Shown: positions 3,367 to 13,252, counted from the stretch's first letter. The stretch: DNA of 27,290 nt from Cyclobacteriaceae bacterium (GCA_029861825.1 JAOTYN010000001.1:1-27290); one strand, 5' to 3'. Made by a program: numbers and translations. The notes: generated by a model from the letters alone, not told the origin.

Positions 3367-3681
3367 TTAACTAATTTTTATGTAGGCTCCAGGAGCTGTT
3401 AAAAGTATTTCTAACGGTTTCAAAGGCCCAATGGGAACTAGTTCGAAGTCCAACAACTTTTCTTTTACCAATGGAAGCTCATTGATTACCCTTTGTGCTT
3501 CATCAAGCGAATCACTTTCCATAATAAATACTACTCCTGGACGATCTTTTCTAAAGAAGAAAGTCCGTATCTTTTCATCCAGGTACAACTGAATAGTATG
3601 GGCCAATTCCTTTGGTAAATGGTGCCGCATCTTCTCTTCGGTGGTACCCTTGGTTAATTTGTCAATTGCTAGGATTTGCAT
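3367..3681 (-). CDS. Muconolactone delta-isomerase-like small ferredoxin-fold protein
   Basis: From the ATG at 3681: MQILAIDKL...KELAHTIQLYLDEKIRTFFFRKDRPGVVFIMESDSLDEAQRVINELPLVKEKLLDFELVPIGPL. The pattern (E..a..L...G.i...f......G.v.i.e..s..ea...l..LP......fe..P) fits the MIase-like family. The ORF-track start at 3738 lies deep inside the upstream gene, so 3681 is preferred (20-nt overlap). Confidence 0.65.
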   Translation of the reverse strand: MQILAIDKLTKGTTEEKMRHHLPKELAHTIQLYLDEKIRTFFFRKDRPGVVFIMESDSLDEAQRVINELPLVKEKLLDFELVPIGPLKPLEILLTAPGAYIKIS

Positions 3682-4750
3682 GATAATTAAATTTATAAGG
3701 TTCGACATTTGACATTTGATGTGTAGCCAGCCATTCAAGAGACTGACTGGATAATCGTGTTTTGCTAAAATTTGGGAAACCTTGTTCCTTTTCGAATTTT
3801 TCCATGTTCCAATTCGCAGTAAATAGCACTTTTATCATAAACAGCAGGGCTTTTAACTTATTCGCCAGTGTTTGTTGAGCTATAGGCCGACTAGTAAGAT
3901 ATCGACGGGTAATGGTTTCGAAGTCATCTGCTTCTTTTCCCACAATGTCTTTTACCACATTGGTGGGTGCATTAATTTTCCAGGTACCTGCGTGCCCTTC
4001 TTCCATATAGTACCGAACCTGAGAAATATCCATTTGTGGATATCCGGAAGCCCTTAATACTTTATTTATCATCTTTTGTGACATGTCGGTCACTTTAACT
4101 TTCCTGCCAATTACCTTGCTTATCACCTGAGCCATTTGCTTTGCGTTAAGCAACTCTTTACCGGTAACTCGATAAGTTTTACCTTCATGGGCATCAGGAT
4201 CTTTTAGAATATGGGCTGCTACCAGCCCGATATCTTCGTTGGACGGGGGTGCATTGGTCCCAAAATCAGGGAGCATTCCAAACTGAGCTAAGGGCTCTGG
4301 TGTCAAGAAATAAATAAATCCGAACAACCCAGGATTCAAAAAGGTGATGCTTGTATTGGACAAGCGTTTAAATGCCTGATCCACCAACCAATGCTCTTTT
4401 GTGTAAACAGATGGGTGGATATTGGAACTAAGCCATTGCGTGAGGACCACTATATGTCTGGTTCCTAACTCATCCACAGCAGTGGCAAATGTTTCACCTT
4501 GAAACAAAACATTGGGGTAAGTAGGCACAAAATAGGCTCTTTCGATGCCATAAAGGGCTTTCCGAACATCGCTAATGTTCTCAATATTTCCCACAAAAAG
4601 TTCAGCGCCGGATTTTTTCAGTTGCTTCGCTTTCGCACTGTTTGGGTTTCTCACAAAGGCCCTGACGGGGAATCCTAGTGTTAAAAGTTCCATGGCCGCG
4701 GGAAATCCGGTGTTGCCGTTAGCTGCGGTAATTAAAATTTTAGGTTTCAT
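3662..4750 (-). CDS. NmrA-family NAD(P)-binding protein (atypical SDR)
   Basis: N-terminal Rossmann ILITAANGNTG, VRAFVRNP, PSNEDIGLVAAHIL, HEGKTYRVTGKELL; about 60-aa C-terminal extension. Confidence 0.88.
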   Translation of the reverse strand: MKPKILITAANGNTGFPAAMELLTLGFPVRAFVRNPNSAKAKQLKKSGAELFVGNIENISDVRKALYGIERAYFVPTYPNVLFQGETFATAVDELGTRHIVVLTQWLSSNIHPSVYTKEHWLVDQAFKRLSNTSITFLNPGLFGFIYFLTPEPLAQFGMLPDFGTNAPPSNEDIGLVAAHILKDPDAHEGKTYRVTGKELLNAKQMAQVISKVIGRKVKVTDMSQKMINKVLRASGYPQMDISQVRYYMEEGHAGTWKINAPTNVVKDIVGKEADDFETITRRYLTSRPIAQQTLANKLKALLFMIKVLFTANWNMEKFEKEQGFPNFSKTRLSSQSLEWLATHQMSNVEPYKFNYHANPSN

Positions 4751-4779
4751 AATTGATAATCTTTTCAGTTGGTTTAATA

Positions 4780-4794
4780 AATTAGACTGTTCTA
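4780..4794. promoter_or_regulatory. Putative TetR operator upstream of the NmrA gene
   Basis: AATTAGACTGTTCTA contains the palindrome TAGA-CTGT-TCTA; 13/14 identical to 5405-5418. Confidence 0.65.
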
Positions 4795-4812
4795 CTTATT
4801 TTATAATAAAAT

Positions 4813-5397
4813 TTAAGATCGTAAGAAATTAAAGCCCATATTATCCAAAAGCTGAAAAGCCTTGGTACTCTTAGTGGCCTTTGATCTGGATAATACACCG
4901 TAATAAGTGAGGTGTAAAAACTCCGCCAATTCCAATGCAGAAACATCCGACCTAATTTCACCTTTTTGCTGTCCTTCTTCGATGGTTTCTGCCAGTATTT
5001 CTATCAGGCTTATAAACTCCTCATTGGCAATTGAAACCAATGATTCATCTTCCGCCGCGGCCTCAATGGATATGTTATTCAGTAGGCAACCACTTTGATA
5101 TCGTTCTTCTACACTTACACTTTCCAATGCTTGGTAAACATGTTTCAATCTCTCTAAGGGGGATAATTCGGAAGTAGCTTTCATACCCTCCTGCAATTTT
5201 TTTCGCATATCTTTACCATAGTGTTTGATAGCTCTCAATGCGAAATCCTCTTTGGATTTGAAGAAATTATAAAAGGAGCCTTTCGGTAGATTACTAGCTT
5301 CCAGAATCTCAGTAATGCCGGTATTGTAATACCCATTCTTCCGGATCAATCCAGCTCCTTTTTCTACGATGTCCTCTATATTATGTTTATACCCCAT
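4813..5397 (-). CDS. TetR/AcrR-family regulator (NemR/LmrA-like, TetR_C_13-type C-domain)
   Basis: HTH GYYNTGITEILEASNLPKGSFYNFFKSKEDF; conserved GCLLNN motif in the ligand-binding domain. Confidence 0.93.
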   Translation of the reverse strand: MGYKHNIEDIVEKGAGLIRKNGYYNTGITEILEASNLPKGSFYNFFKSKEDFALRAIKHYGKDMRKKLQEGMKATSELSPLERLKHVYQALESVSVEERYQSGCLLNNISIEAAAEDESLVSIANEEFISLIEILAETIEEGQQKGEIRSDVSALELAEFLHLTYYGVLSRSKATKSTKAFQLLDNMGFNFLRS

Positions 5398-5693: not shown

Positions 5694-6128
5694 TTACTTA
5701 AATGTAACAATAGACTTTCCCTGATTGACATCATGACATAGCTGAGAAAGCGTTTTCTCACTTAGCAATTTGTGGATTTTCTCCTTTACTACCTTGTAAT
5801 CAAAATGAATGGGACAGGGCGTTTTATCCGAACATTGCTTTAATCCTATTCCACAGCGGTCAAAAATGTCCAAACCATCGATTATCTCTACTATGGTAAT
5901 GAGTCTTAGCTCTTCGGGAGGAATGTTCAAGGAGAATCCTCCATGTGGGCCTTTTGTAGAAATTAAAACTTTTTGTTTTACCAGTTGCTGCAAAATTTTG
6001 CTGAGAAAATGCAGGGGCACTTGCTGGGATTCCGATATTTCCTTCAATCCTACGGCCTTGTTTTCCTCACCGTGTAGGGTAATGTAAAGAATGGACTGTA
6101 ACGCGTATTCGCATGATCTGGAGAACAT
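5694..6128 (-). CDS. Rrf2-family transcriptional regulator with Fe-S ligand motif
   Basis: MFSRSCEYAL; wHTH VPLHFLSKILQQLVK..STKGPHGGF; C-x6-C-x5-C-x2-H (RCGIGLKQCSDKTPCPIH, 5805-5855). Confidence 0.95.
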   Translation of the reverse strand: MFSRSCEYALQSILYITLHGEENKAVGLKEISESQQVPLHFLSKILQQLVKQKVLISTKGPHGGFSLNIPPEELRLITIVEIIDGLDIFDRCGIGLKQCSDKTPCPIHFDYKVVKEKIHKLLSEKTLSQLCHDVNQGKSIVTFK

Positions 6129-6174
6129 ATCACCTAAATTAACTTTTTTATCAGATTATATAAGTATCCGGGTT

Positions 6175-6194
6175 ATTGTGGGAGTTCTCACAAT
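6175..6194. promoter_or_regulatory. CRP/FNR-family-type palindrome in the Rrf2/ACAD divergent region
   Basis: ATTGTGGGAGTTCTCACAAT = AT-TGTGG-N6-TCACA-AT, one mismatch from TGTGA-N6-TCACA; 8 of 9 arm positions are complementary. Confidence 0.5.
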
Positions 6195-6325
6195 CGATCT
6201 CTTCCGTAGCGTCCCATACCTGGAATCTTAAATATTCAGCTTGGAGAACTGTTGACAATAAAACACCAAATATTACATATTATAGATTTTTAGACCTTTT
6301 TATCCAATTTAATCAAAAAATTATC

Positions 6326-6332
6326 TAATTTG
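6326..6332 (+). promoter_or_regulatory. Possible Bacteroidota -7 element for the ACAD operon
   Basis: TAATTTG followed by CG, 65 nt upstream of the ATG at 6398; one nt shorter than canonical TAnnTTTG. Confidence 0.35.
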
Positions 6333-6397
6333 CGACCGGTTCGAACATAAAATAGGTTGGGAACAGGCGAACTGAAGCCTAACAAAACTGAAGAAAA

Positions 6398-7636
6398 ATG
6401 GAACAAGCATTACAAAATGGGCAAATGACTGCCACAGAAGAAAAGGATCTCATTGCTCTATGTGGGGATCTATCAAAAAGATTTGCGGAGCGGGCGGCTG
6501 ATTACGACCGACAAGCTACCTGGCCCATTAAAGACTATGAAGATCTGAAAAAAGCCGGACTTTTAGGTATCATGGTACCCAAAGAAAAAGGAGGCTTAGG
6601 AGCTAGTTTTTTAACCTATACCAAGGCTCAGGAACAGCTTTCAAGTGGTGCCGCTTCTACCGGGCTTACTTTCAATATGCATAATATCACCGCCGGCATT
6701 CTCTCCGAAAGCAAAACCGAAGACATCGGAGGAACCCGCGGAAAGGCTATGAATGATTTCAGGGACTGGGCTCTGAATGAGATTGTCAACGGCCACAAAA
6801 TGTTTGCATCGGCTAACTCAGAACCTGGTATTGGCGCTCATTTCAGCGCGTTAAAAACCACCTATCGTAAAGTGGATGGAGGATACGTCATCAACGGGTA
6901 TAAGATGTTTGTCTCTATGTTGGGCTACGCCGATTATTATGTAGTGGCAGCTCGTAGAGAGCAGTCTTCCGGGGACCTGCCTGAGATTTCATTTTTTATC
7001 GTGGAACTGGACAACCCGGGAATAGAAGTAGAAGAGGTTTGGGACACTATGGGTATGCGGGCTACGGTGTCCAATAACATGAAACTCAAGGATTGTTTCG
7101 TTTCCCAGGATCGACTGTTTTTAGGTACCGAAGGACTAGGTATTTATAAGCTTACTCGGGAGCCTCATTGGGTCATAGGCGGTTATGTGGGGACCTATTT
7201 GGGTCTTTGTCAAGCTACTTTCGACTATATGATCAGCCACTTGCAGAAGAAAAAGATACCGGGTAGTGATCAGTCGGTTATTAATCGGGATTGGGTGCAG
7301 CGGGATGTTGGTAAACTTGCGGTGCAATTAGAAGCAACCCGCGAATTGGTATATAAAGCGGCCCGCCTGGTTGACGAGCAACGAGGAACACCACAAACCA
7401 ATGCTGCTATTCATCATTCCAAATATATGGTGAGTGAATTTGCCCCCAAGCTAGCCTCCGACGCCATACGGCTTTGCGGGGGCAGCGGAATTGCCAGGGC
7501 CTTGCCTTTGGAACGCTTTTACCGGGATGCCCGATGTGCCGGCCTGATGCCTGCCACCAGCGATGAATGTCTGCTGTACGCAGGCAAATCGGCCCTGGGG
7601 TTTGATCTCACCCATATCGAAGAGACCTACTGGTAG
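6398..7636 (+). CDS. ACAD-fold flavoprotein lacking the catalytic Glu (possible flavin monooxygenase or non-catalytic subunit)
   Basis: GLLGIMVPKEKGGLG, SEPG, YVINGYKMFVS, WDTMGMRAT, RLCGGSG, PLERFYRDAR. Val (7172-7174) occupies the IVD/LCAD Glu position and Pro occupies the MCAD Glu position (LMPAT). Confidence 0.9.
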   Translation: MEQALQNGQMTATEEKDLIALCGDLSKRFAERAADYDRQATWPIKDYEDLKKAGLLGIMVPKEKGGLGASFLTYTKAQEQLSSGAASTGLTFNMHNITAGILSESKTEDIGGTRGKAMNDFRDWALNEIVNGHKMFASANSEPGIGAHFSALKTTYRKVDGGYVINGYKMFVSMLGYADYYVVAARREQSSGDLPEISFFIVELDNPGIEVEEVWDTMGMRATVSNNMKLKDCFVSQDRLFLGTEGLGIYKLTREPHWVIGGYVGTYLGLCQATFDYMISHLQKKKIPGSDQSVINRDWVQRDVGKLAVQLEATRELVYKAARLVDEQRGTPQTNAAIHHSKYMVSEFAPKLASDAIRLCGGSGIARALPLERFYRDARCAGLMPATSDECLLYAGKSALGFDLTHIEETYW

Positions 7637-7680
7637 TCGTTGAGAAGCACTCGATTGATCACAATTTAAATACTGTTTAT

Positions 7681-8838
7681 ATGCAAGCATGGCAAGATCC
7701 CTCCATTGAAGAAATACGCACCAAATATCAATTGTTCGCTTCGGAAAATTTGGAAGGCGATTGGCGTCAGAGAGACGCAGACTTAGAATTTTCCGCCCAA
7801 AGATGGCAGCAATGCGCGGATTTGGGACTATTTGGGTTATCTATGAAGAAAGAGTATGGCGGGCAGGAGCTGCCTTATTCTCATACCATAGCGGCCCTTG
7901 AAGGATTATGTCAGGGATGCCACGACACGGGTTTTTTCTTTGCCATGGCTTCGCAAATAAGCGGTACTCAGCTGGCTTTACAGGCCTTGGGTTCGGAAGA
8001 TCTCAAGCAAAAATATCTGCCGGCGTTAATTTCAGGGAAGCACTTTACCAGTTTGGGATTCTCGGAACTTTCTGCGGGAAGCGATATATATTCCATCGAA
8101 ACCCGGGCTACCAAAACGAAGGGAGGTTATATTCTTGAGGGGAAAAAAGCTTTTATCACCAATTCCGCGGATGCCACCTGTTGTTTGGTTTTTGCCAAAA
8201 CGGCGGACAACCGCTCTCCCTTCGATTTTACGGCCTTCATGGTCGATTTGGACTGGGAGGGAGTATCTCATGGCGAACCTTTTGAGAAGTCCAGCTTACG
8301 AACTTGTTCGTTAGGTCAGTTACATTTTAATAAAGTATTTGTCCCTGAAGCCCATGTCATCGGCTCAGAAGGTGGAGGGCTAGCCGTTATAAAAGTATCT
8401 ATTGGCTGGGAGCGCATACTTTTAATGGCAGTTTGCCTGGGGCCCATGTCGCGGGTATTGGAAACTACCGTCGAGCAGACTAAAAATAGACAGCAATTCG
8501 GTCGCCCCATCGGTAAGTTCCAGCATATTTCAGGTAAGATTGCTGACATGGTGCTGAGGAGGAATATGTCCAGACTGGTAGTATACGACCTGGCAGGTCA
8601 ATTGTCTAAGGACGATGCCGTAGGGAAATTTTTGAAAGAGGTGGCGGTTACCAAGTTATACGTAACAGAGAATTACATTCAATTTATGTTGGATGCCACA
8701 CAGATTTGGGGAGGAAGGGGTGTATGCAAAGAATGGTCCATTCAGCAAGACATGAGAGATGCCCTTTCAAGCACGATTTGGGCGGGCACTTCCGAGACCC
8801 TTCGCAATACCATCGCCAAACTGGAAGGGGTAGGGTAG
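7681..8838 (+). CDS. ACAD-family flavoprotein resembling L-prolyl-carrier-protein dehydrogenases (PltE/RedW/AnaB type)
   Basis: W.QCADLGLFGL...EYGG, ALEGLCQGCHDTGFFFAM, KQKYLPALISG, AGSD, GWER (Glu at 8410-8412), QFGRPIGKFQ, RDALSSTIWAGTSE..RNTIAK. ACAD family is certain; the subfamily call is by motif recollection. Confidence 0.85.
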   Translation: MQAWQDPSIEEIRTKYQLFASENLEGDWRQRDADLEFSAQRWQQCADLGLFGLSMKKEYGGQELPYSHTIAALEGLCQGCHDTGFFFAMASQISGTQLALQALGSEDLKQKYLPALISGKHFTSLGFSELSAGSDIYSIETRATKTKGGYILEGKKAFITNSADATCCLVFAKTADNRSPFDFTAFMVDLDWEGVSHGEPFEKSSLRTCSLGQLHFNKVFVPEAHVIGSEGGGLAVIKVSIGWERILLMAVCLGPMSRVLETTVEQTKNRQQFGRPIGKFQHISGKIADMVLRRNMSRLVVYDLAGQLSKDDAVGKFLKEVAVTKLYVTENYIQFMLDATQIWGGRGVCKEWSIQQDMRDALSSTIWAGTSETLRNTIAKLEGVG

Positions 8839-8870
8839 ACCAGGTTTGAAAGTTTGTTCTTGGCCGAGTT

Positions 8871-8900
8871 TAGAATTTGAACCAGATTCTATATTTTAGT
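8871..8900 (+). terminator. Weak candidate intrinsic terminator after the ACAD pair
   Basis: TAGAATTTG-AAC-CAGATTCTA (9 bp with one G-U pair, AT-rich) followed by TATTTTAGT. Confidence 0.35.
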
Positions 8901-8937
8901 TTCTAATTGACCCCTGCATTTGGCCCTTGCCCCAAGT

Positions 8938-10734
8938 CTAAGCTTCATCAACCTCCAAAATACCTTCTTCTTCTATGAGGGCCCGAGCATCAGCCTTATC
9001 CTCTTCTAGGATCAGATCTTGCTGAACATATAATAGTTCGCCAAAGGTGATCAGTCGGTGACCGATCAGGTTTACGGTGGCGTTGTCATTCATCAGCGAA
9101 GTGGCCATTTCATTGGTAATCAGATTTTTACGGACTAGTTTGTCGATGGATCCGTCCATTAGCACATCGCTCTTGTCCAGCTTAGCTCGTAATTTCTGGA
9201 GCTTCCTTAGGTTTAGCTCCGGTTTATCTGCACGTTTTACCTCCTGGATCTCTCGCACTATTTTTAAAATGATCCGGCGCATGTCGTTGTACTCTTTCCT
9301 AATAAAATAGTTATCCGACCCGATGTATTTCGACATGTTTTTGTGCAGGGGTTTCATAGCTTTTACCACTGTAACCAGTTGACGGTTAGCATTCAAAATA
9401 TTACGAATCAACTCAATTTTCTCCTCATTCAACTCAAACTTGCTCTGGAGCATGGTAGCGTATTCTAATATGGTATTGTAAATGGTCTTGATCTTACCGT
9501 AGTACAGGGCGTCGATGTCTACTTCTATAACTTCATTGCGGTCTACAATGGCTTTTAGTTTCGCTCCTGATTCCACATCCGACCGGTGAACATTCAATCC
9601 ATGGGTAAGTGCCCGGTAAACGGAGTTTTCAAACAATCGAGTCGATTCCTTTAATAAAGCCGAAATACCGGTTTGAGGATAGCGTAAATCGGCTTCATTC
9701 AAATACATCGGTTGGTCGATATCTTTTTCAGGGTCGACCTTTTCCGGAACCAAACGCATTACCAGGGAGGCGATCAAGGGCACGAACCAGATCAAAACCA
9801 TAGTATTAATAATGTTGAAGGAGGTGTGGAATAACGAAAGGGCCACCGGAATAGCAGTGGCTTCCACGAAGGGCGAGGCCGACCCATCATTGGTAACGAA
9901 CCAGTCGATACCCTGCAGGAAAGGCACAAAGAATATGATCATCCAAGCTACCCCCAGCACATTAAATATAAAATGGGCACGGGCGGTACGCTTGGCATGG
10001 AAATTAGCTACCAAAGCTGCCAGGTTAGCGGTAATTGTGGTTCCCAGGTTCTCTCCCAACACCATGGCCACCGCCATATCAAAGGGGATCCAGCCTTCAT
10101 TGCACATAACCAGTGTGAGCGCCATGGTTGCGCTTGACGATTGTACCACAATGGTTAAGATGGTGCCAATCAACAGGAACAGCAGCACCGAGGGCAGTCC
10201 CATTTGGGTATACTTGGTTAAAAATTCTAATGCTCCCGGGTTGTTGGCGATATCAGGGACGGAGTCTTTTAGGAACTGCAGGCCAATAAAAAGTATGGCA
10301 AACCCCACAATGAAATACCCCCAATGTTTGCGTGTTTTGTTTTTGGCAAAGGTCAACAAGAATCCAAACCCTACCAGGGGTAATGCAATTGCGCTCATGC
10401 TCACCTTAAAACCCAATATGGTAATGAGCCAGGCCGTAACAGTGGTTCCGATGTTGGCGCCCATAATCACTCCAATGGATTCACCCAGAGTGAGTAGGGC
10501 TGCATTGGAAAAACTAACCACCATTAGGGTAGTAGCAGATGAGGATTGAATTACTGAGGTGATAAGAAATCCGGTGAAGACTGCAAACATCCGATTGGAT
10601 GTCATAGTAGCCAGGATAGTACGCATTTTGTCCCCGGCGACTTCCATCAACGCATCACTCATCACCTTCATTCCAAAAAGAAAGAGCCCTAATGACCCGG
10701 CTAAGGTTAATATTTCACCGATACCGAATTGCAT
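8938..10734 (-). CDS. Na/Pi cotransporter family (NptA/YjbB-like) with soluble PhoU-like C-terminal region
   Basis: Two repeats with the QSSSAT signature (VIQSSSATT, VVQSSSATM), GANIGTT and GENLGTT; helical cytoplasmic tail. Confidence 0.93.
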   Translation of the reverse strand: MQFGIGEILTLAGSLGLFLFGMKVMSDALMEVAGDKMRTILATMTSNRMFAVFTGFLITSVIQSSSATTLMVVSFSNAALLTLGESIGVIMGANIGTTVTAWLITILGFKVSMSAIALPLVGFGFLLTFAKNKTRKHWGYFIVGFAILFIGLQFLKDSVPDIANNPGALEFLTKYTQMGLPSVLLFLLIGTILTIVVQSSSATMALTLVMCNEGWIPFDMAVAMVLGENLGTTITANLAALVANFHAKRTARAHFIFNVLGVAWMIIFFVPFLQGIDWFVTNDGSASPFVEATAIPVALSLFHTSFNIINTMVLIWFVPLIASLVMRLVPEKVDPEKDIDQPMYLNEADLRYPQTGISALLKESTRLFENSVYRALTHGLNVHRSDVESGAKLKAIVDRNEVIEVDIDALYYGKIKTIYNTILEYATMLQSKFELNEEKIELIRNILNANRQLVTVVKAMKPLHKNMSKYIGSDNYFIRKEYNDMRRIILKIVREIQEVKRADKPELNLRKLQKLRAKLDKSDVLMDGSIDKLVRKNLITNEMATSLMNDNATVNLIGHRLITFGELLYVQQDLILEEDKADARALIEEEGILEVDEA

Positions 10735-10768
10735 AGTTTACTCGTGGATTAGTTTTTCATGATATTAG

Positions 10769-10812
10769 TTAACATTTAGGTTACATTAACTTAACAATTA
10801 ATTCACATTTAA
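10769..10812 (+). promoter_or_regulatory. Pho-box-like array of four direct repeats at exact 11-bp period
   Basis: TTAACAT-TTAG / GTTACAT-TAAC / TTAACAA-TTAA / TTCACAT-TTAA starting at 10769, 10780, 10791 and 10802; lies between two divergent phosphate transporters. Confidence 0.75.
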
Positions 10813-10879
10813 ATTAATATAAATAATTGGTTATTTTTACTACTTTCATGACCTTGAGCTCTCGTTAAACTTCCGAATA

Positions 10880-13252
10880 ATGGCTTCATTCTATCTAATT
10901 CTGGTGGTGGTATTGTTTCTGCTGGCGATATCGGACCTGGTGGTTGGTGTAAGTAACGATGCCGTCAACTTCTTGAACTCCGCGGTAGGCGCGAAAGCAG
11001 CTGCATTTAAGGTCATAATGACCGTAGCCGCATTAGGGGTCTTAGTGGGCGCTACTTTCTCCAGTGGTATGATGGAAGTTGCACGTAAAGGTATCTTCCA
11101 CCCGGAGTTTTTCTATTTCTCGGAGATAATTATTCTCTTTTTGGCGGTTATGGTTACTGATGTGATCCTGTTGGATACCTTTAATACCTTCGGTATGCCC
11201 ACCTCTACCACAGTATCCATAGTTTTTGAGTTACTGGGGGCGGCCGTAGCCATTGCAGCGGTAAAGATATTTACCGATCCCAATGCTTTAGCTCTTTATG
11301 AATATATCAATTCTGCCAAAGCCCTGGCTATCATTTCCGGGATACTACTGTCCGTAGTTATTGCGTTCACCTGTGGTGTATTAGTGCAATACCTTAGTCG
11401 TTTATTGTTCTCATTCGACTATGAAAAGAGAATGCGTCAATACGGAGCTATTTGGGGAGGACTGGGGGTGATGGCTATCACCTATTTCATGTTGATCAAG
11501 GGTGTAAAGGGGGCATCTTTTATGAGTGTTAATATCGTGACCGCTGTGGGTGAAAACACTATTGTCATCCTTCTGGGAAGCTTTGTTGGTTGGACCCTAA
11601 TCCTCTATCTTCTTAATCGGGTGTTTAAAGTTAACATCCTTCAGGTACTGGTATTGGTGGGTACCTTTGCTTTAGCCATGGCTTTTGCGGGGAATGACCT
11701 GGTGAATTTTATTGGGGTGCCTCTGGCAGGATATAATTCCTACCTGCTGTTTACTGAATCGGGAAGCGGTGCAGATCAGTTGTTGATGGATGGCTTAGCC
11801 GGTAAAGTACCTACACCTACTTTACTACTACTACTGGCCGGACTAATTATGGTGATTACCCTGTACACTTCCAGGAAAGCGAAATCCGTGGTAAAAACCT
11901 CATTGGACCTTGGAAGGCAGGATGAAGGACAAGAGCGTTTCTCTTCCTTCGTACTTTCCAGACGGATTGTCCGGAATTTCGCCAGTGCCGCCACGGCCAT
12001 AAACAATGCCTTGCCCGAGAAATGGACGCAAGGAGTGAAACGTCAATTCGACCATTCTCCTTTCACCAAGCGCCAACGAGTTCAGGGTAAAGAAGCCCCT
12101 GTTTTTGATATGATCAGAGCATCTGTGACTCTGGTGGTAGCCAGTATCCTCATCGCTATTGGTACTAATCTTAAACTGCCCCTGTCCACCACTTATGTGA
12201 CTTTTATGGTCTTCATGGGTACTTCATTGGCCGATGGAGCCTGGGGACGGGAAAGTGCTGTTTACCGGGTTTCTGGAGTTCTTTCCGTGATAGGAGGCTG
12301 GTTCTTTACGGCATTTTCAGCCTTTATCGTGGCCTTTGCCATGGCGTTGATCTTTCATTTTGGAGGCTTGATAGCCATCAGCATAACTTTGGTTATCGCG
12401 GGAATTCTGATCTATAGAACCCACCGCTATCACGGAAAACGATTGAAAGAGCAGGTGGCCTTTGAAAAAAGCTTTGATGAGGGAACGCTAACCGGCGAAA
12501 AGCTAGTTAGCTTAAGTCACAAGCAGCTCAAAACATTCCTGATCCAATTTGAAACCCAGGTGGACTCTTCATTAAAGGGTCTGAAGGAAGAAAACCTGAA
12601 CATTTTAAATCATTCTTATCAAACTTTCAGACCGGTCTTAGGCCAGGTGCGAAGATTGAAAACAATTTCCAGTAATTTTCTAGACCGCGTACCGGAATCC
12701 GATCTGGAAGCTGGACATCTGTATATCCTGGTGGTGGACTATTTGTATGAGATGGGTAAACTGACTATGGATATGATTGAAAACAATCTCAATCATGTGG
12801 ACAATAATCATAAGCCGTTGCTTCCGGAACAGATGGAGGAGTTGATGTCCTTGCATGATATGCTTAGGGAACGGTATCAGTCCATTATTGAGGTTTTCAA
12901 AACAAGTGACCAAGAGCTCACCGGTAAACTGTACGACCATGTGATTACTTATGTGAACATCATTCGCAATGTTCGTAAGAAACAAATCAAAAGGATCAAA
13001 AATCACGAGGTTGGAACCCGTAACAGTGCTCTTTACCTGGGTCACTTAGGAGAATTAAGAAATCTAGGTTTGTTCTCAAATCGTATTGTTAGGGTCCTCG
13101 ATGAATTAATTCTGAATCCACATGACGACGGGGAGTTCTCCGTGGACAGGATAAAGAGGGAGTTAAAGCAATTGCGTAAGGAAGTGAAAACCATCCCCCT
13201 GGAATCGGATAAGGATCTCCCCAAAGCATCTGGTGAGGGAGAAAAAACTTAA
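10880..13252 (+). CDS. Inorganic phosphate transporter (PiT/PHO4 family) with long PhoU-like C-terminal domain
   Basis: GVSNDAVNFLNSAVG and AFAGNDLVNFIGVP signature pair, MPTSTT, LPLSTTYV; about 270-aa soluble helical tail. Confidence 0.93.
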   Translation: MASFYLILVVVLFLLAISDLVVGVSNDAVNFLNSAVGAKAAAFKVIMTVAALGVLVGATFSSGMMEVARKGIFHPEFFYFSEIIILFLAVMVTDVILLDTFNTFGMPTSTTVSIVFELLGAAVAIAAVKIFTDPNALALYEYINSAKALAIISGILLSVVIAFTCGVLVQYLSRLLFSFDYEKRMRQYGAIWGGLGVMAITYFMLIKGVKGASFMSVNIVTAVGENTIVILLGSFVGWTLILYLLNRVFKVNILQVLVLVGTFALAMAFAGNDLVNFIGVPLAGYNSYLLFTESGSGADQLLMDGLAGKVPTPTLLLLLAGLIMVITLYTSRKAKSVVKTSLDLGRQDEGQERFSSFVLSRRIVRNFASAATAINNALPEKWTQGVKRQFDHSPFTKRQRVQGKEAPVFDMIRASVTLVVASILIAIGTNLKLPLSTTYVTFMVFMGTSLADGAWGRESAVYRVSGVLSVIGGWFFTAFSAFIVAFAMALIFHFGGLIAISITLVIAGILIYRTHRYHGKRLKEQVAFEKSFDEGTLTGEKLVSLSHKQLKTFLIQFETQVDSSLKGLKEENLNILNHSYQTFRPVLGQVRRLKTISSNFLDRVPESDLEAGHLYILVVDYLYEMGKLTMDMIENNLNHVDNNHKPLLPEQMEELMSLHDMLRERYQSIIEVFKTSDQELTGKLYDHVITYVNIIRNVRKKQIKRIKNHEVGTRNSALYLGHLGELRNLGLFSNRIVRVLDELILNPHDDGEFSVDRIKRELKQLRKEVKTIPLESDKDLPKASGEGEKT

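Follow-up and report, generated by a model that had tools for sequence, protein, structure and literature searches.

A ChmG/ChmH-type pair of acyl-CoA-dehydrogenase-fold enzymes beside a putative Fe-S Rrf2 regulator in a Cytophagales genome

Introduction

What do two tandem, very dissimilar flavoenzymes of the acyl-CoA dehydrogenase (ACAD) fold do, and is their expression tied to the Rrf2-family regulator encoded divergently from them? The question is raised by a 27,290-nt stretch of DNA (JAOTYN010000001.1:1-27290, assembly GCA_029861825.1; hereafter the window, always at its full length) from a Cyclobacteriaceae bacterium. Its source is a fragmented metagenome-assembled genome of the Bacteroidota (Cytophagales), with 609 contigs, 4.18 Mb and 86.6% completeness. 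We refer to the two enzyme genes and their products as ACAD1 and ACAD2. A preliminary description had presented them, together with rrf2, as an undescribed system; the enzyme pair, however, is of a kind already described (ChmG/ChmH, PMC10849742). Judged by sequence, it is not a new system but a module of the ChmG/ChmH N-oxygenase/dehydrogenase type whose form is unusual, being unlinked and apparently regulated. We propose, with a probability of roughly 0.6, that the locus is a two-gene operon for a ChmG-type N-oxygenase and an ACAD of the prolyl-carrier-protein dehydrogenase type, whose substrate would be loaded in trans and whose expression would be tied to Rrf2 through a conserved box.

Results and discussion

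ACAD1 as a relative of ChmG-type N-oxygenases

In the chalkophomycin route reported by Crooke, Chand, Cui and Balskus (2024, PMC10849742), ChmJ loads proline onto ChmI. ChmG, a KijD3-like protein of the ACAD fold with Met at the position of the catalytic Glu, N-hydroxylates prolyl-S-ChmI; ring oxidation by ChmH, in which the Glu is kept, then gives the N-hydroxypyrrole, and ChmF releases the product (PMC10849742). LflChmG was active alone, and LflChmH acted only afterwards. Hormaomycin HrmK-N also accomplish thiotemplated N-hydroxypyrrole formation, and the ChmG-type N-oxygenases of that report came from actinobacterial, Nocardia and Pseudomonas gene clusters (PMC10849742).

ACAD1 of the window comprised the ACAD N, M and C domains of Pfam and a type-2 C-terminal domain. 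Glu was missing from both canonical positions, with Pro385 in the YEG column of the short- and medium-chain dehydrogenases (SCAD/MCAD) and Val259 in the column used by isovaleryl-CoA dehydrogenase (IVD). The protein was 44% identical to the ChmG orthologue of S. anulatus (P0178; over 408 aa, E 5e-114), whose gene adjoins those of an adenylase, a carrier protein, a second ACAD, an alpha/beta-hydrolase and a nonribosomal peptide synthetase (NRPS), in an order that matches chmJ-I-H-G-F. In S. lydicamycinicus, the order was adenylase, carrier protein, ACAD2-like, ACAD1-like and flavin reductase. Close relatives of ACAD1 are called from the residue corresponding to M10, which gives an alternative start at position 6425.

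Within the ACAD1 family, identity was 50-60% across Bacteroidota, Gammaproteobacteria, Acidimicrobiia, Calditrichota, Myxococcota and Planctomycetota, and about 40% with the Streptomyces, Nocardia and Pseudomonas members. In a joint alignment, Pro occupied the MCAD-type column in 80/80 family members, all of which also shared the REPHW motif. The IVD-type column held Met in each of the 22 actinobacterial and Pseudomonas proteins, as published for ChmG, and V, T, L or Q in the 58 marine ones.

The AlphaFold2 model of ACAD1 (predicted local distance difference test 80.5, predicted template modelling score 0.84) superposed on ACAD-fold structures with a template modelling score of about 0.8. The best fold match in the PDB was 5z8t, an entry with only the title "flavin-containing monooxygenase". 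All ACAD folds scored alike in the Foldseek comparison with the PDB, which thus did not separate oxygenases from dehydrogenases. No paper turned up in a literature search for the closest fold and sequence matches of ACAD1 (5Z8T and 5GJ7), and a search for "BEC protein", the source name of a homologue, found nothing.

ACAD1 also has its fold, the missing catalytic base and the type-2 C-terminal domain in common with the nitrososynthases KijD3, ORF36 and DnmZ and with DszC. It differs from these enzymes in that the identity is only about 24-28%, and in that their substrates are free dTDP-amino sugars or dibenzothiophene rather than carrier-bound molecules.

ACAD2 as a relative of prolyl-carrier-protein dehydrogenases

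ACAD2 was only 20% identical to ACAD1. The best NCBIfam models were PigA (308 bits, cut-off 500) and RedW (292 bits, cut-off 650), and the top four PDB relatives were all prolyl-carrier-protein dehydrogenases, namely AnaB (243 bits), PigA (two entries, 225 bits) and Bmp3 (203 bits; 6CXT, identified as Bmp3 in PMC10849742). Glu244 of ACAD2 aligned with the catalytic Glu of AnaB and PigA. At that position, entry 6af6 has Ala in comparison with the wild-type PigA chain. The Glu in the IVD-type column was present in 45/45 members of the ACAD2 family, and ACAD2 was 34% identical to the ChmH orthologue that adjoins P0178. The fold, the Glu at the IVD position and the best sequence matches are therefore those of PigA, RedW, PltE, AnaB and Bmp3; ACAD2 differs from this group in scoring below the equivalog cut-offs, in having no adjoining carrier protein and in having a partner of the N-oxygenase type.

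The preliminary description was right to call the two proteins very different and complementary, the first lacking both Glu residues and the second keeping the one of the IVD type. Like ChmG and ChmH, they form a tandem, highly divergent ACAD-fold pair, of which one member resembles KijD3 and the nitrososynthases and the other has the Glu of the AnaB/Bmp3 type; the REPHW and MPA motifs are common to both pairs. The order of the genes differs, as the oxygenase comes first in the window, and Val replaces Met at the base position. We consider it very probable, from these sequence comparisons, that ACAD1 is a relative of the ChmG-type N-oxygenases and ACAD2 a relative of the prolyl-carrier-protein dehydrogenases.

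That both genes encode ordinary dehydrogenases of beta-oxidation or of branched-chain acyl-CoAs might be suggested by their Pfam ACAD domains and by the presence of SCAD and IVD among the PDB matches. Neither protein reached the cut-off of any NCBIfam ACAD equivalog, however, and both were rejected as characterised acyl-CoA dehydrogenases on that ground. Moreover, ACAD1 has no catalytic Glu, the best relatives of ACAD2 are enzymes acting on carrier proteins, and the family context (see below) consists of an adenylase and a carrier protein, not of electron-transfer flavoprotein (ETF), thiolase and hydratase. An ordinary acyl-CoA dehydrogenase function has hardly any likelihood.

Genomic context of the ACAD1 family

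The family was surveyed at 80 loci from species-representative genomes (58 marine, 22 actinobacterial or from Pseudomonas), with neighbours recorded within 8 kb. An adenylating enzyme and/or a carrier protein was found at 69 of them (47/58 marine and 22/22 actinobacterial/Pseudomonas), a linkage that is shared with ChmG/ChmH. A flavin reductase was encoded at 18/22 of the actinobacterial loci. The marine adenylases passed the amino-acid-adenylation model, and the anchors of their pockets matched those of ChmJ (D-L-x-x-F, L before YGPTE, and V-C/I after it), at positions which we take to be those of the Stachelhaus specificity code.

ACAD2 accompanied the ACAD1 homologue at 23/58 marine loci and was absent from the other 35, and a longer ACAD similar to acyl-CoA oxidase (ACOX) lay nearby at 23/58. 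These numbers bear on the first of two models in the preliminary description, an alpha2beta2 heteromeric dehydrogenase of the mycobacterial ChsE4-ChsE5 type, in which ACAD1 would be an obligate but non-catalytic subunit. Such a heteromer would fit tandem genes 44 nt apart with one product lacking the catalytic base. It fits poorly with the 35 marine loci where ACAD1 occurs without ACAD2, and with the stronger conservation of ACAD1, compared with ACAD2, across phyla (50-60% identity, 105 near-invariant columns), which one would not expect of a scaffold subunit. Furthermore, the published LflChmG works alone, with LflChmH following (PMC10849742). We regard the heteromer as highly unlikely. Of the second model, a two-step pathway, the sequence of an oxygenase followed by a dehydrogenase agrees with the 44% identity to ChmG and the grouping of ACAD2 with prolyl-carrier-protein dehydrogenases; the suggested roles in organosulfur scavenging or heterocycle degradation found no support.

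The clusters with marine ChmG-like genes at loci L082, L089, L019, L090 and L092 encode an amino-acid adenylase, an 80-aa carrier protein and a FemAB-like protein. Their further neighbours include an AAC(3)-like acyltransferase, DUF354, pairs of hydrolases, and sulfotransferases or a condensation-adenylation-thiolation NRPS with a phosphopantetheinyl transferase. Because several neighbours of the marine clusters (ligase, hydrolase, FemAB-like protein, sulfotransferases, AAC(3)-like acyltransferase) resemble an exosortase (XrtA/PEP-CTERM)-associated polysaccharide cassette, and not an antibiotic cluster, their gene content suggests that these clusters decorate a cell-surface polymer rather than make a diffusible antibiotic.

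The bare clade and a complete cluster in the same genome

The window pair belongs to a clade of marine genes that we call bare, as they occur without an adenylase and a carrier protein in cis. Bare loci came from the window's own species (L001, L134), Splendidivirga (L002/L081), the Roseivirgaceae (L004) and the Calditrichia (L003); the others were the metagenomic contigs L130-L133, a trio in the Rhodothermales and a few truncated contigs. A scan of metagenome contigs with a single protein returned only three loci. In the tree, the bare genes and NRPS-linked genes of the Granulosicoccaceae formed a supported clade (97/99).

In the carrier-linked marine ACAD1 proteins, 105 columns were at least 96% conserved, and the window's ACAD1 was identical at 102 of them. 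The three deviations (F42W, F47Y and G381A) were conservative. With so few differences at conserved columns, the chemistry of the bare clade is probably unchanged from that of the carrier-linked members.

A complete cluster was present as well in four of the five genomes that carry a bare copy. Contig C74 of the genome from which the window derives was 97.5% identical to, and syntenic with, the complete cluster of a near relative (L019). The cluster encodes a fusion of adenylation, peptidyl-carrier-protein and hydrolase domains, a hydrolase, a putative non-amino-acid adenylase, ACAD1', ACAD2', a carrier protein, a Pro-type adenylase and further products. The carrier protein is encoded at L019:10430-10705, and an adenylase with Asp235 at L019:12040-13623. 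Action in trans on the carrier protein of the C74 cluster would thus be the simplest mechanism for the window pair, given the match between C74 and the relative's complete cluster. The independence from carrier proteins that the preliminary description implied is doubtful, as the family is overwhelmingly carrier-linked and the same genome holds the complete cluster.

The adenylating enzyme encoded just upstream of ACAD1' (L141:2976-4565, which is C74; L019:6217-7806) lacks the Asp to which the alpha-amino group binds, this position being occupied by Gly (FGIS versus FDxS). It probably activates a non-amino acid, and the cluster would accordingly have two different adenylases.

In the Rhodothermales (L083:9958-14186 and L015), the bare genes formed a trio of ACAD1, an ACOX-like long ACAD and ACAD2, and the 8 kb around it contained neither an adenylase nor a carrier protein gene; at L083 the trio was preceded by genes for Cpn10 and a methionine sulfoxide reductase. 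In the Calditrichia, a gene for a Crp/FNR-family regulator (L003:274-1014, + strand) lies directly upstream of a bare ACAD1 without ACAD2 beside it. This regulator has an N-terminal C-x2-C-x4-C motif and further Cys residues after it, which makes it a candidate FNR-like iron-sulfur (Fe-S) protein.

Several bare-clade loci (L003, L130, L131 and L132) contain ACAD1 without ACAD2. Because of these lone genes and the missing adenylase and carrier protein in cis, the substrate of the bare clade could now be free or tethered in some other way. The clade would then have left thiotemplated chemistry, and ACAD1, with or without ACAD2, would oxidise a free small molecule or a lipid-bound amine within an O2, nitric oxide (NO) or oxidative-stress regulon under an Fe-S sensor. 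Some neighbours are in line with such a role: the FNR-like regulator with its N-terminal Cys cluster in the Calditrichia; an esterase, a zinc-dependent alcohol dehydrogenase and a truncated globin in L131; ferredoxin, DsbB and a redoxin in L132; Cpn10 and MsrA in L083; and FA_hydroxylase in L081 and L130. A homologue of the window's Rrf2 with 53% identity, moreover, ends an operon of ScdA/hemerythrin, DUF2249 and DUF1858 genes. This neighbour evidence is anecdotal, however, and varies between loci, whereas the retention of 102/105 conserved columns, the nesting of the bare genes with the NRPS-linked Granulosicoccaceae genes and the complete cluster in four of five genomes all argue for carrier-bound chemistry. 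We consider oxidation of a free or lipid-bound substrate unlikely.

The Rrf2 protein and its partners

The Rrf2 protein matched PF02082 (91.7 bits, cut-off 30) and TIGR00738 (92.6 bits, cut-off 73.3). It stayed under the equivalog cut-offs of IscR (64 versus 207), NsrR (30 versus 182), RirA (33 versus 193) and CymR (36 versus 195), and was rejected as an orthologue of any of the four. In its translation, the motif C92-x6-C99-x5-C105-x2-H108 aligned with the ligand region of IscR, where the spacing is C-x5-C-x5-C-x2-H; all four residues were retained in an orthologue with 81% identity (L130). With these three Cys and one His, the protein probably carries an Fe-S cluster. The winged-helix domain and the C-terminal Cys cluster are shared with IscR, NsrR, RirA and RsrR, and the arrangement of three Cys and a His is IscR-like. 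In contrast, the window protein remained below every equivalog cut-off, and its candidate operator and the neighbours of its subfamily (fatty-acid hydroxylase or desaturase, and the N-oxygenase) are unlike those of the described regulons.

The subfamily is spread over the Cytophagales (258 homologues at E<1e-30, 63-81% identity). Among the first 80 loci, the window's own species was the only one with Rrf2 beside ACAD1. A species-specific adjacency was nevertheless rejected when a metagenomic homologue look-up yielded L130, from another lineage, in which the 81% Rrf2 orthologue and a fatty-acid hydroxylase gene are divergent from an 83% ACAD1 orthologue. The adjacency hence recurs in a second lineage and is not unique to the window's genome.

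The constant partner of the 77-81% orthologues was a membrane di-iron oxygenase gene directly upstream on the same strand. It encodes FA_hydroxylase in L130 (L130:2485-3839) and in Agaribacillus (L145:4147-5435), and FA_desaturase in L146-L149 (L146:4146-5435). In Agaribacillus L145, the FA_hydroxylase-Rrf2 unit is followed by a phenylacetyl-CoA epoxidase-type operon (paaE-A-B-C-D, hydratase and dehydrogenase). The nearest orthologues from genomes, G003 (68%) and G068 (53%), belong to genomes without the ACAD1 family; one lies beside enoyl-CoA hydratase genes and the other ends a ScdA/hemerythrin operon.

The latter operon, in G068, runs ScdA/hemerythrin-DUF2249-DUF1858-FeS_assembly_P-Rrf2. 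Upstream of it (L125:5142-5237) we found a perfect 27-bp palindrome, ACGGTTATATCA-CTT-TGATATAACCGT, which is unlike the box of the window. From its position, it is likely the operator of this 53% homologue.

The conserved box

Comparison of the spacers revealed a box, TAGATnnTTAGACCT, with the pattern TAGAT-N2-TTAGACCT-N3-TATC, which in three lineages precedes ACAD1 by about 90-120 nt. In the window, its distance is 94-115 nt from the ACAD1 start and, on the other side, 155 nt from the start of rrf2, and it occurs a single time in the genome at up to 3 mismatches. The same box was present at the same relative position upstream of ACAD1 in L130 and L133. It also preceded the FA_hydroxylase-Rrf2 unit of Agaribacillus (L145/L150), where 22/23 positions were kept and no ACAD gene is found. 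Each Rrf2-bearing genome searched had exactly one exact site, beside rrf2. Sites with one mismatch in five genomes were no commoner than the control and mostly fell inside open reading frames (ORFs), and the TTAGACCT core was not enriched near distant Rrf2 homologues (31-68% identity; 3 matches versus 3.2 expected).

Another operator candidate in this spacer, the imperfect palindrome ATTGTGGGAGTTCTCACAAT, was rejected. The genome contains no second copy of it, but the 98%-related L001 carries clustered substitutions there that erode the dyad, against 96% identity over the remainder of the spacer.

Because the box is shared by the ACAD1 promoters and the promoter of the Agaribacillus Rrf2 operon, it is a candidate Rrf2 operator. 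Together with the adjacency in the second lineage, it strengthens the earlier suggestion that Rrf2 controls the ACAD genes, and we give control through this box slightly better than an even chance. The rrf2 gene might instead be a mere neighbour that regulates itself or other oxygenase genes, the ACAD pair being controlled independently. This is what one might expect from a subfamily whose conserved partner is the di-iron oxygenase (L130, L145; L146-L149) and not an ACAD, from the occurrence of G003 and G068 in genomes without ACAD1, and from the presence of the pair without Rrf2 in Splendidivirga. Against it stand the conserved distance of the box from ACAD1 (about 92-122 nt in three lineages), its recurrence in the ACAD-free Rrf2 operon of Agaribacillus, and the divergent genes with a common 269-nt control region. 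Divergent arrangement is the commonest layout of a regulator and its target. Mere neighbourhood therefore seems possible though doubtful to us. The link of Rrf2 to the pair is, by comparison of the genomes, lineage-specific, given that Splendidivirga has the pair without such an Rrf2.

Organisation of the locus and neighbouring genes

The features of the locus are listed in Table 1. The ORFs bore out the preliminary description of an Rrf2 gene with the C-x6-C-x5-C-x2-H motif, head-to-head with tandem ACAD genes 44 nt apart, and of a transporter gene convergent with the pair. No terminator was predicted on the spacer between ACAD1 and ACAD2, and the arrangement suggests that the two genes are probably co-transcribed as one operon. 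The hairpin said to end the operon fared less well. A consensus scan of 8838-8938 found no terminator, the fold of 8830-8945 was no better than shuffled sequences (z -0.62), and only a 9-bp AU-rich stem could be drawn; it is a possible candidate terminator.

Table 1. Positions of the features of the ACAD locus, counted from the first letter of the window.
Feature	Position	Strand	Remarks
Rrf2-family transcription factor	5694-6128	-	144 aa; Pfam, TIGR00738, ligand motif
Rrf2/ACAD1 intergenic region			269 nt; divergent genes
Imperfect palindrome ATTGTGGGAGTTCTCACAAT	6175-6194		rejected operator candidate
Conserved box TAGATTTTTAGACCTTTTTATCC	6283-6305	+	candidate Rrf2 operator; overlaps the ACAD1 promoter
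ACAD1	6398-7636	+	412 aa; ACAD-fold flavoprotein without catalytic base, putative ChmG-type N-oxygenase relative, bare marine clade
Spacer ACAD1/ACAD2	7637-7680	+	44 nt; terminator not predicted
ACAD2	7681-8838	+	385 aa; putative prolyl/aminoacyl-carrier-protein dehydrogenase relative, IVD-type Glu244
Weak AU-rich 9-bp hairpin, then U-rich stretch	~8871-8891	+	from the fold of 8830-8945
Na/Pi cotransporter family protein	8938-10734	-	convergent with ACAD2; profile matches

Genes for ETF, ligase, thiolase and hydratase were absent among the window's ORFs of at least 100 aa, and a profile search detected no PP-binding or flavin-reductase domain on the whole contig, in agreement with the absences noted earlier. 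Type IX secretion system sorting domains were present on this contig.

The Na/Pi cotransporter gene is one of two divergent phosphate transporter genes at 8938-13252, the other encoding a 790-aa protein of the PiT/PHO4 family (10880-13252, + strand). Downstream of rrf2 on the same strand, genes for a TetR-family regulator and an NmrA-like NAD(P)-binding protein occupy 3662-5397 (-) after a 296-nt gap. The top NCBIfam match of this TetR-family regulator was AcuR-like and below the cut-off. Both genes also accompany the locus in contig L134 of the same species.

Proposed function

By analogy with ChmG and ChmH of the chalkophomycin pathway, ACAD1 would draw on reduced flavin and O2 for the N-hydroxylation of an amino acid that a phosphopantetheinyl carrier protein carries as a thioester; L-prolyl-S-carrier protein is the most likely candidate. 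ACAD2, with Glu244 as the base, would then carry out a ring oxidation of 2-4 electrons to the N-hydroxypyrrole-2-carboxyl thioester. For loading, the pair would depend on an adenylating enzyme and a carrier protein that act in trans, the complete paralogous cluster on C74 being their obvious source. Carrier-bound proline as the actual substrate is, on this analogy, an even bet. Rrf2 would bind the box at 6283-6305 and tie expression of the pair to the status of its cluster. The O2-consuming oxygenases among the neighbours, the sediment habitat and the one bare ACAD1 behind an FNR-like regulator point to O2, iron or NO as the signal.

We must also note the observations that weigh against this proposal. 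In contrast to chmG and chmH, the window pair is not accompanied in cis by an adenylase, a carrier protein, a hydrolase, an NRPS or a flavin reductase, the first two being absent from the window and from its contig, and ACAD2 is missing beside several bare ACAD1 genes. No flavin reductase was found beside any of the 58 marine ACAD1 members either. ACAD1 has Val where ChmG has Met and is separated from the ChmG clade by a long branch in the tree; ACAD2 does not reach the PigA and RedW cut-offs. On the side of regulation, no close Rrf2 was found anywhere in the genome of Splendidivirga, which has a bare pair, and some other factor might bind the box as a promoter element. The only sequencing runs found to contain the stretch are DNA runs, from marine and estuarine sediment metagenomes.

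The pair also differs from ChmG/ChmH in its membership of a separate marine clade of many phyla and in its linkage to Rrf2 and a conserved box. More broadly, we suggest only tentatively that an Fe-S Rrf2 sensor of the Cytophagales, with an operator of its own, may govern a small regulon of O2-consuming oxygenases that includes this stand-alone ChmG/ChmH-type pair.

Implications

Knowledge of ChmG-type N-oxygenases goes back no further than 2024. The pair is part of a large marine family that extends across many phyla, can exist as a free-standing two-gene module apart from the loading machinery and, in that form, has a conserved control box in common with a putative Fe-S Rrf2 regulator. For the Rrf2 subfamily, which is uncharacterised, the box offers a candidate operator. 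Agaribacillus aureus BMA12 (Rrf2 and the box) and Splendidivirga corallicola BMA10 (a bare pair without Rrf2) are possible cultured models. The N-hydroxypyrrole is a metal ligand in chalkophomycin, and the locus offers a concrete example in which control of N-hydroxy-heterocycle formation by redox or iron status can be tested. If a regulon of the fatty-acid hydroxylase or desaturase and the ACAD pair does exist, it would mean that, in thiotemplated chemistry, one isozyme is replaced by another in a regulated manner, according to O2, iron or NO status.

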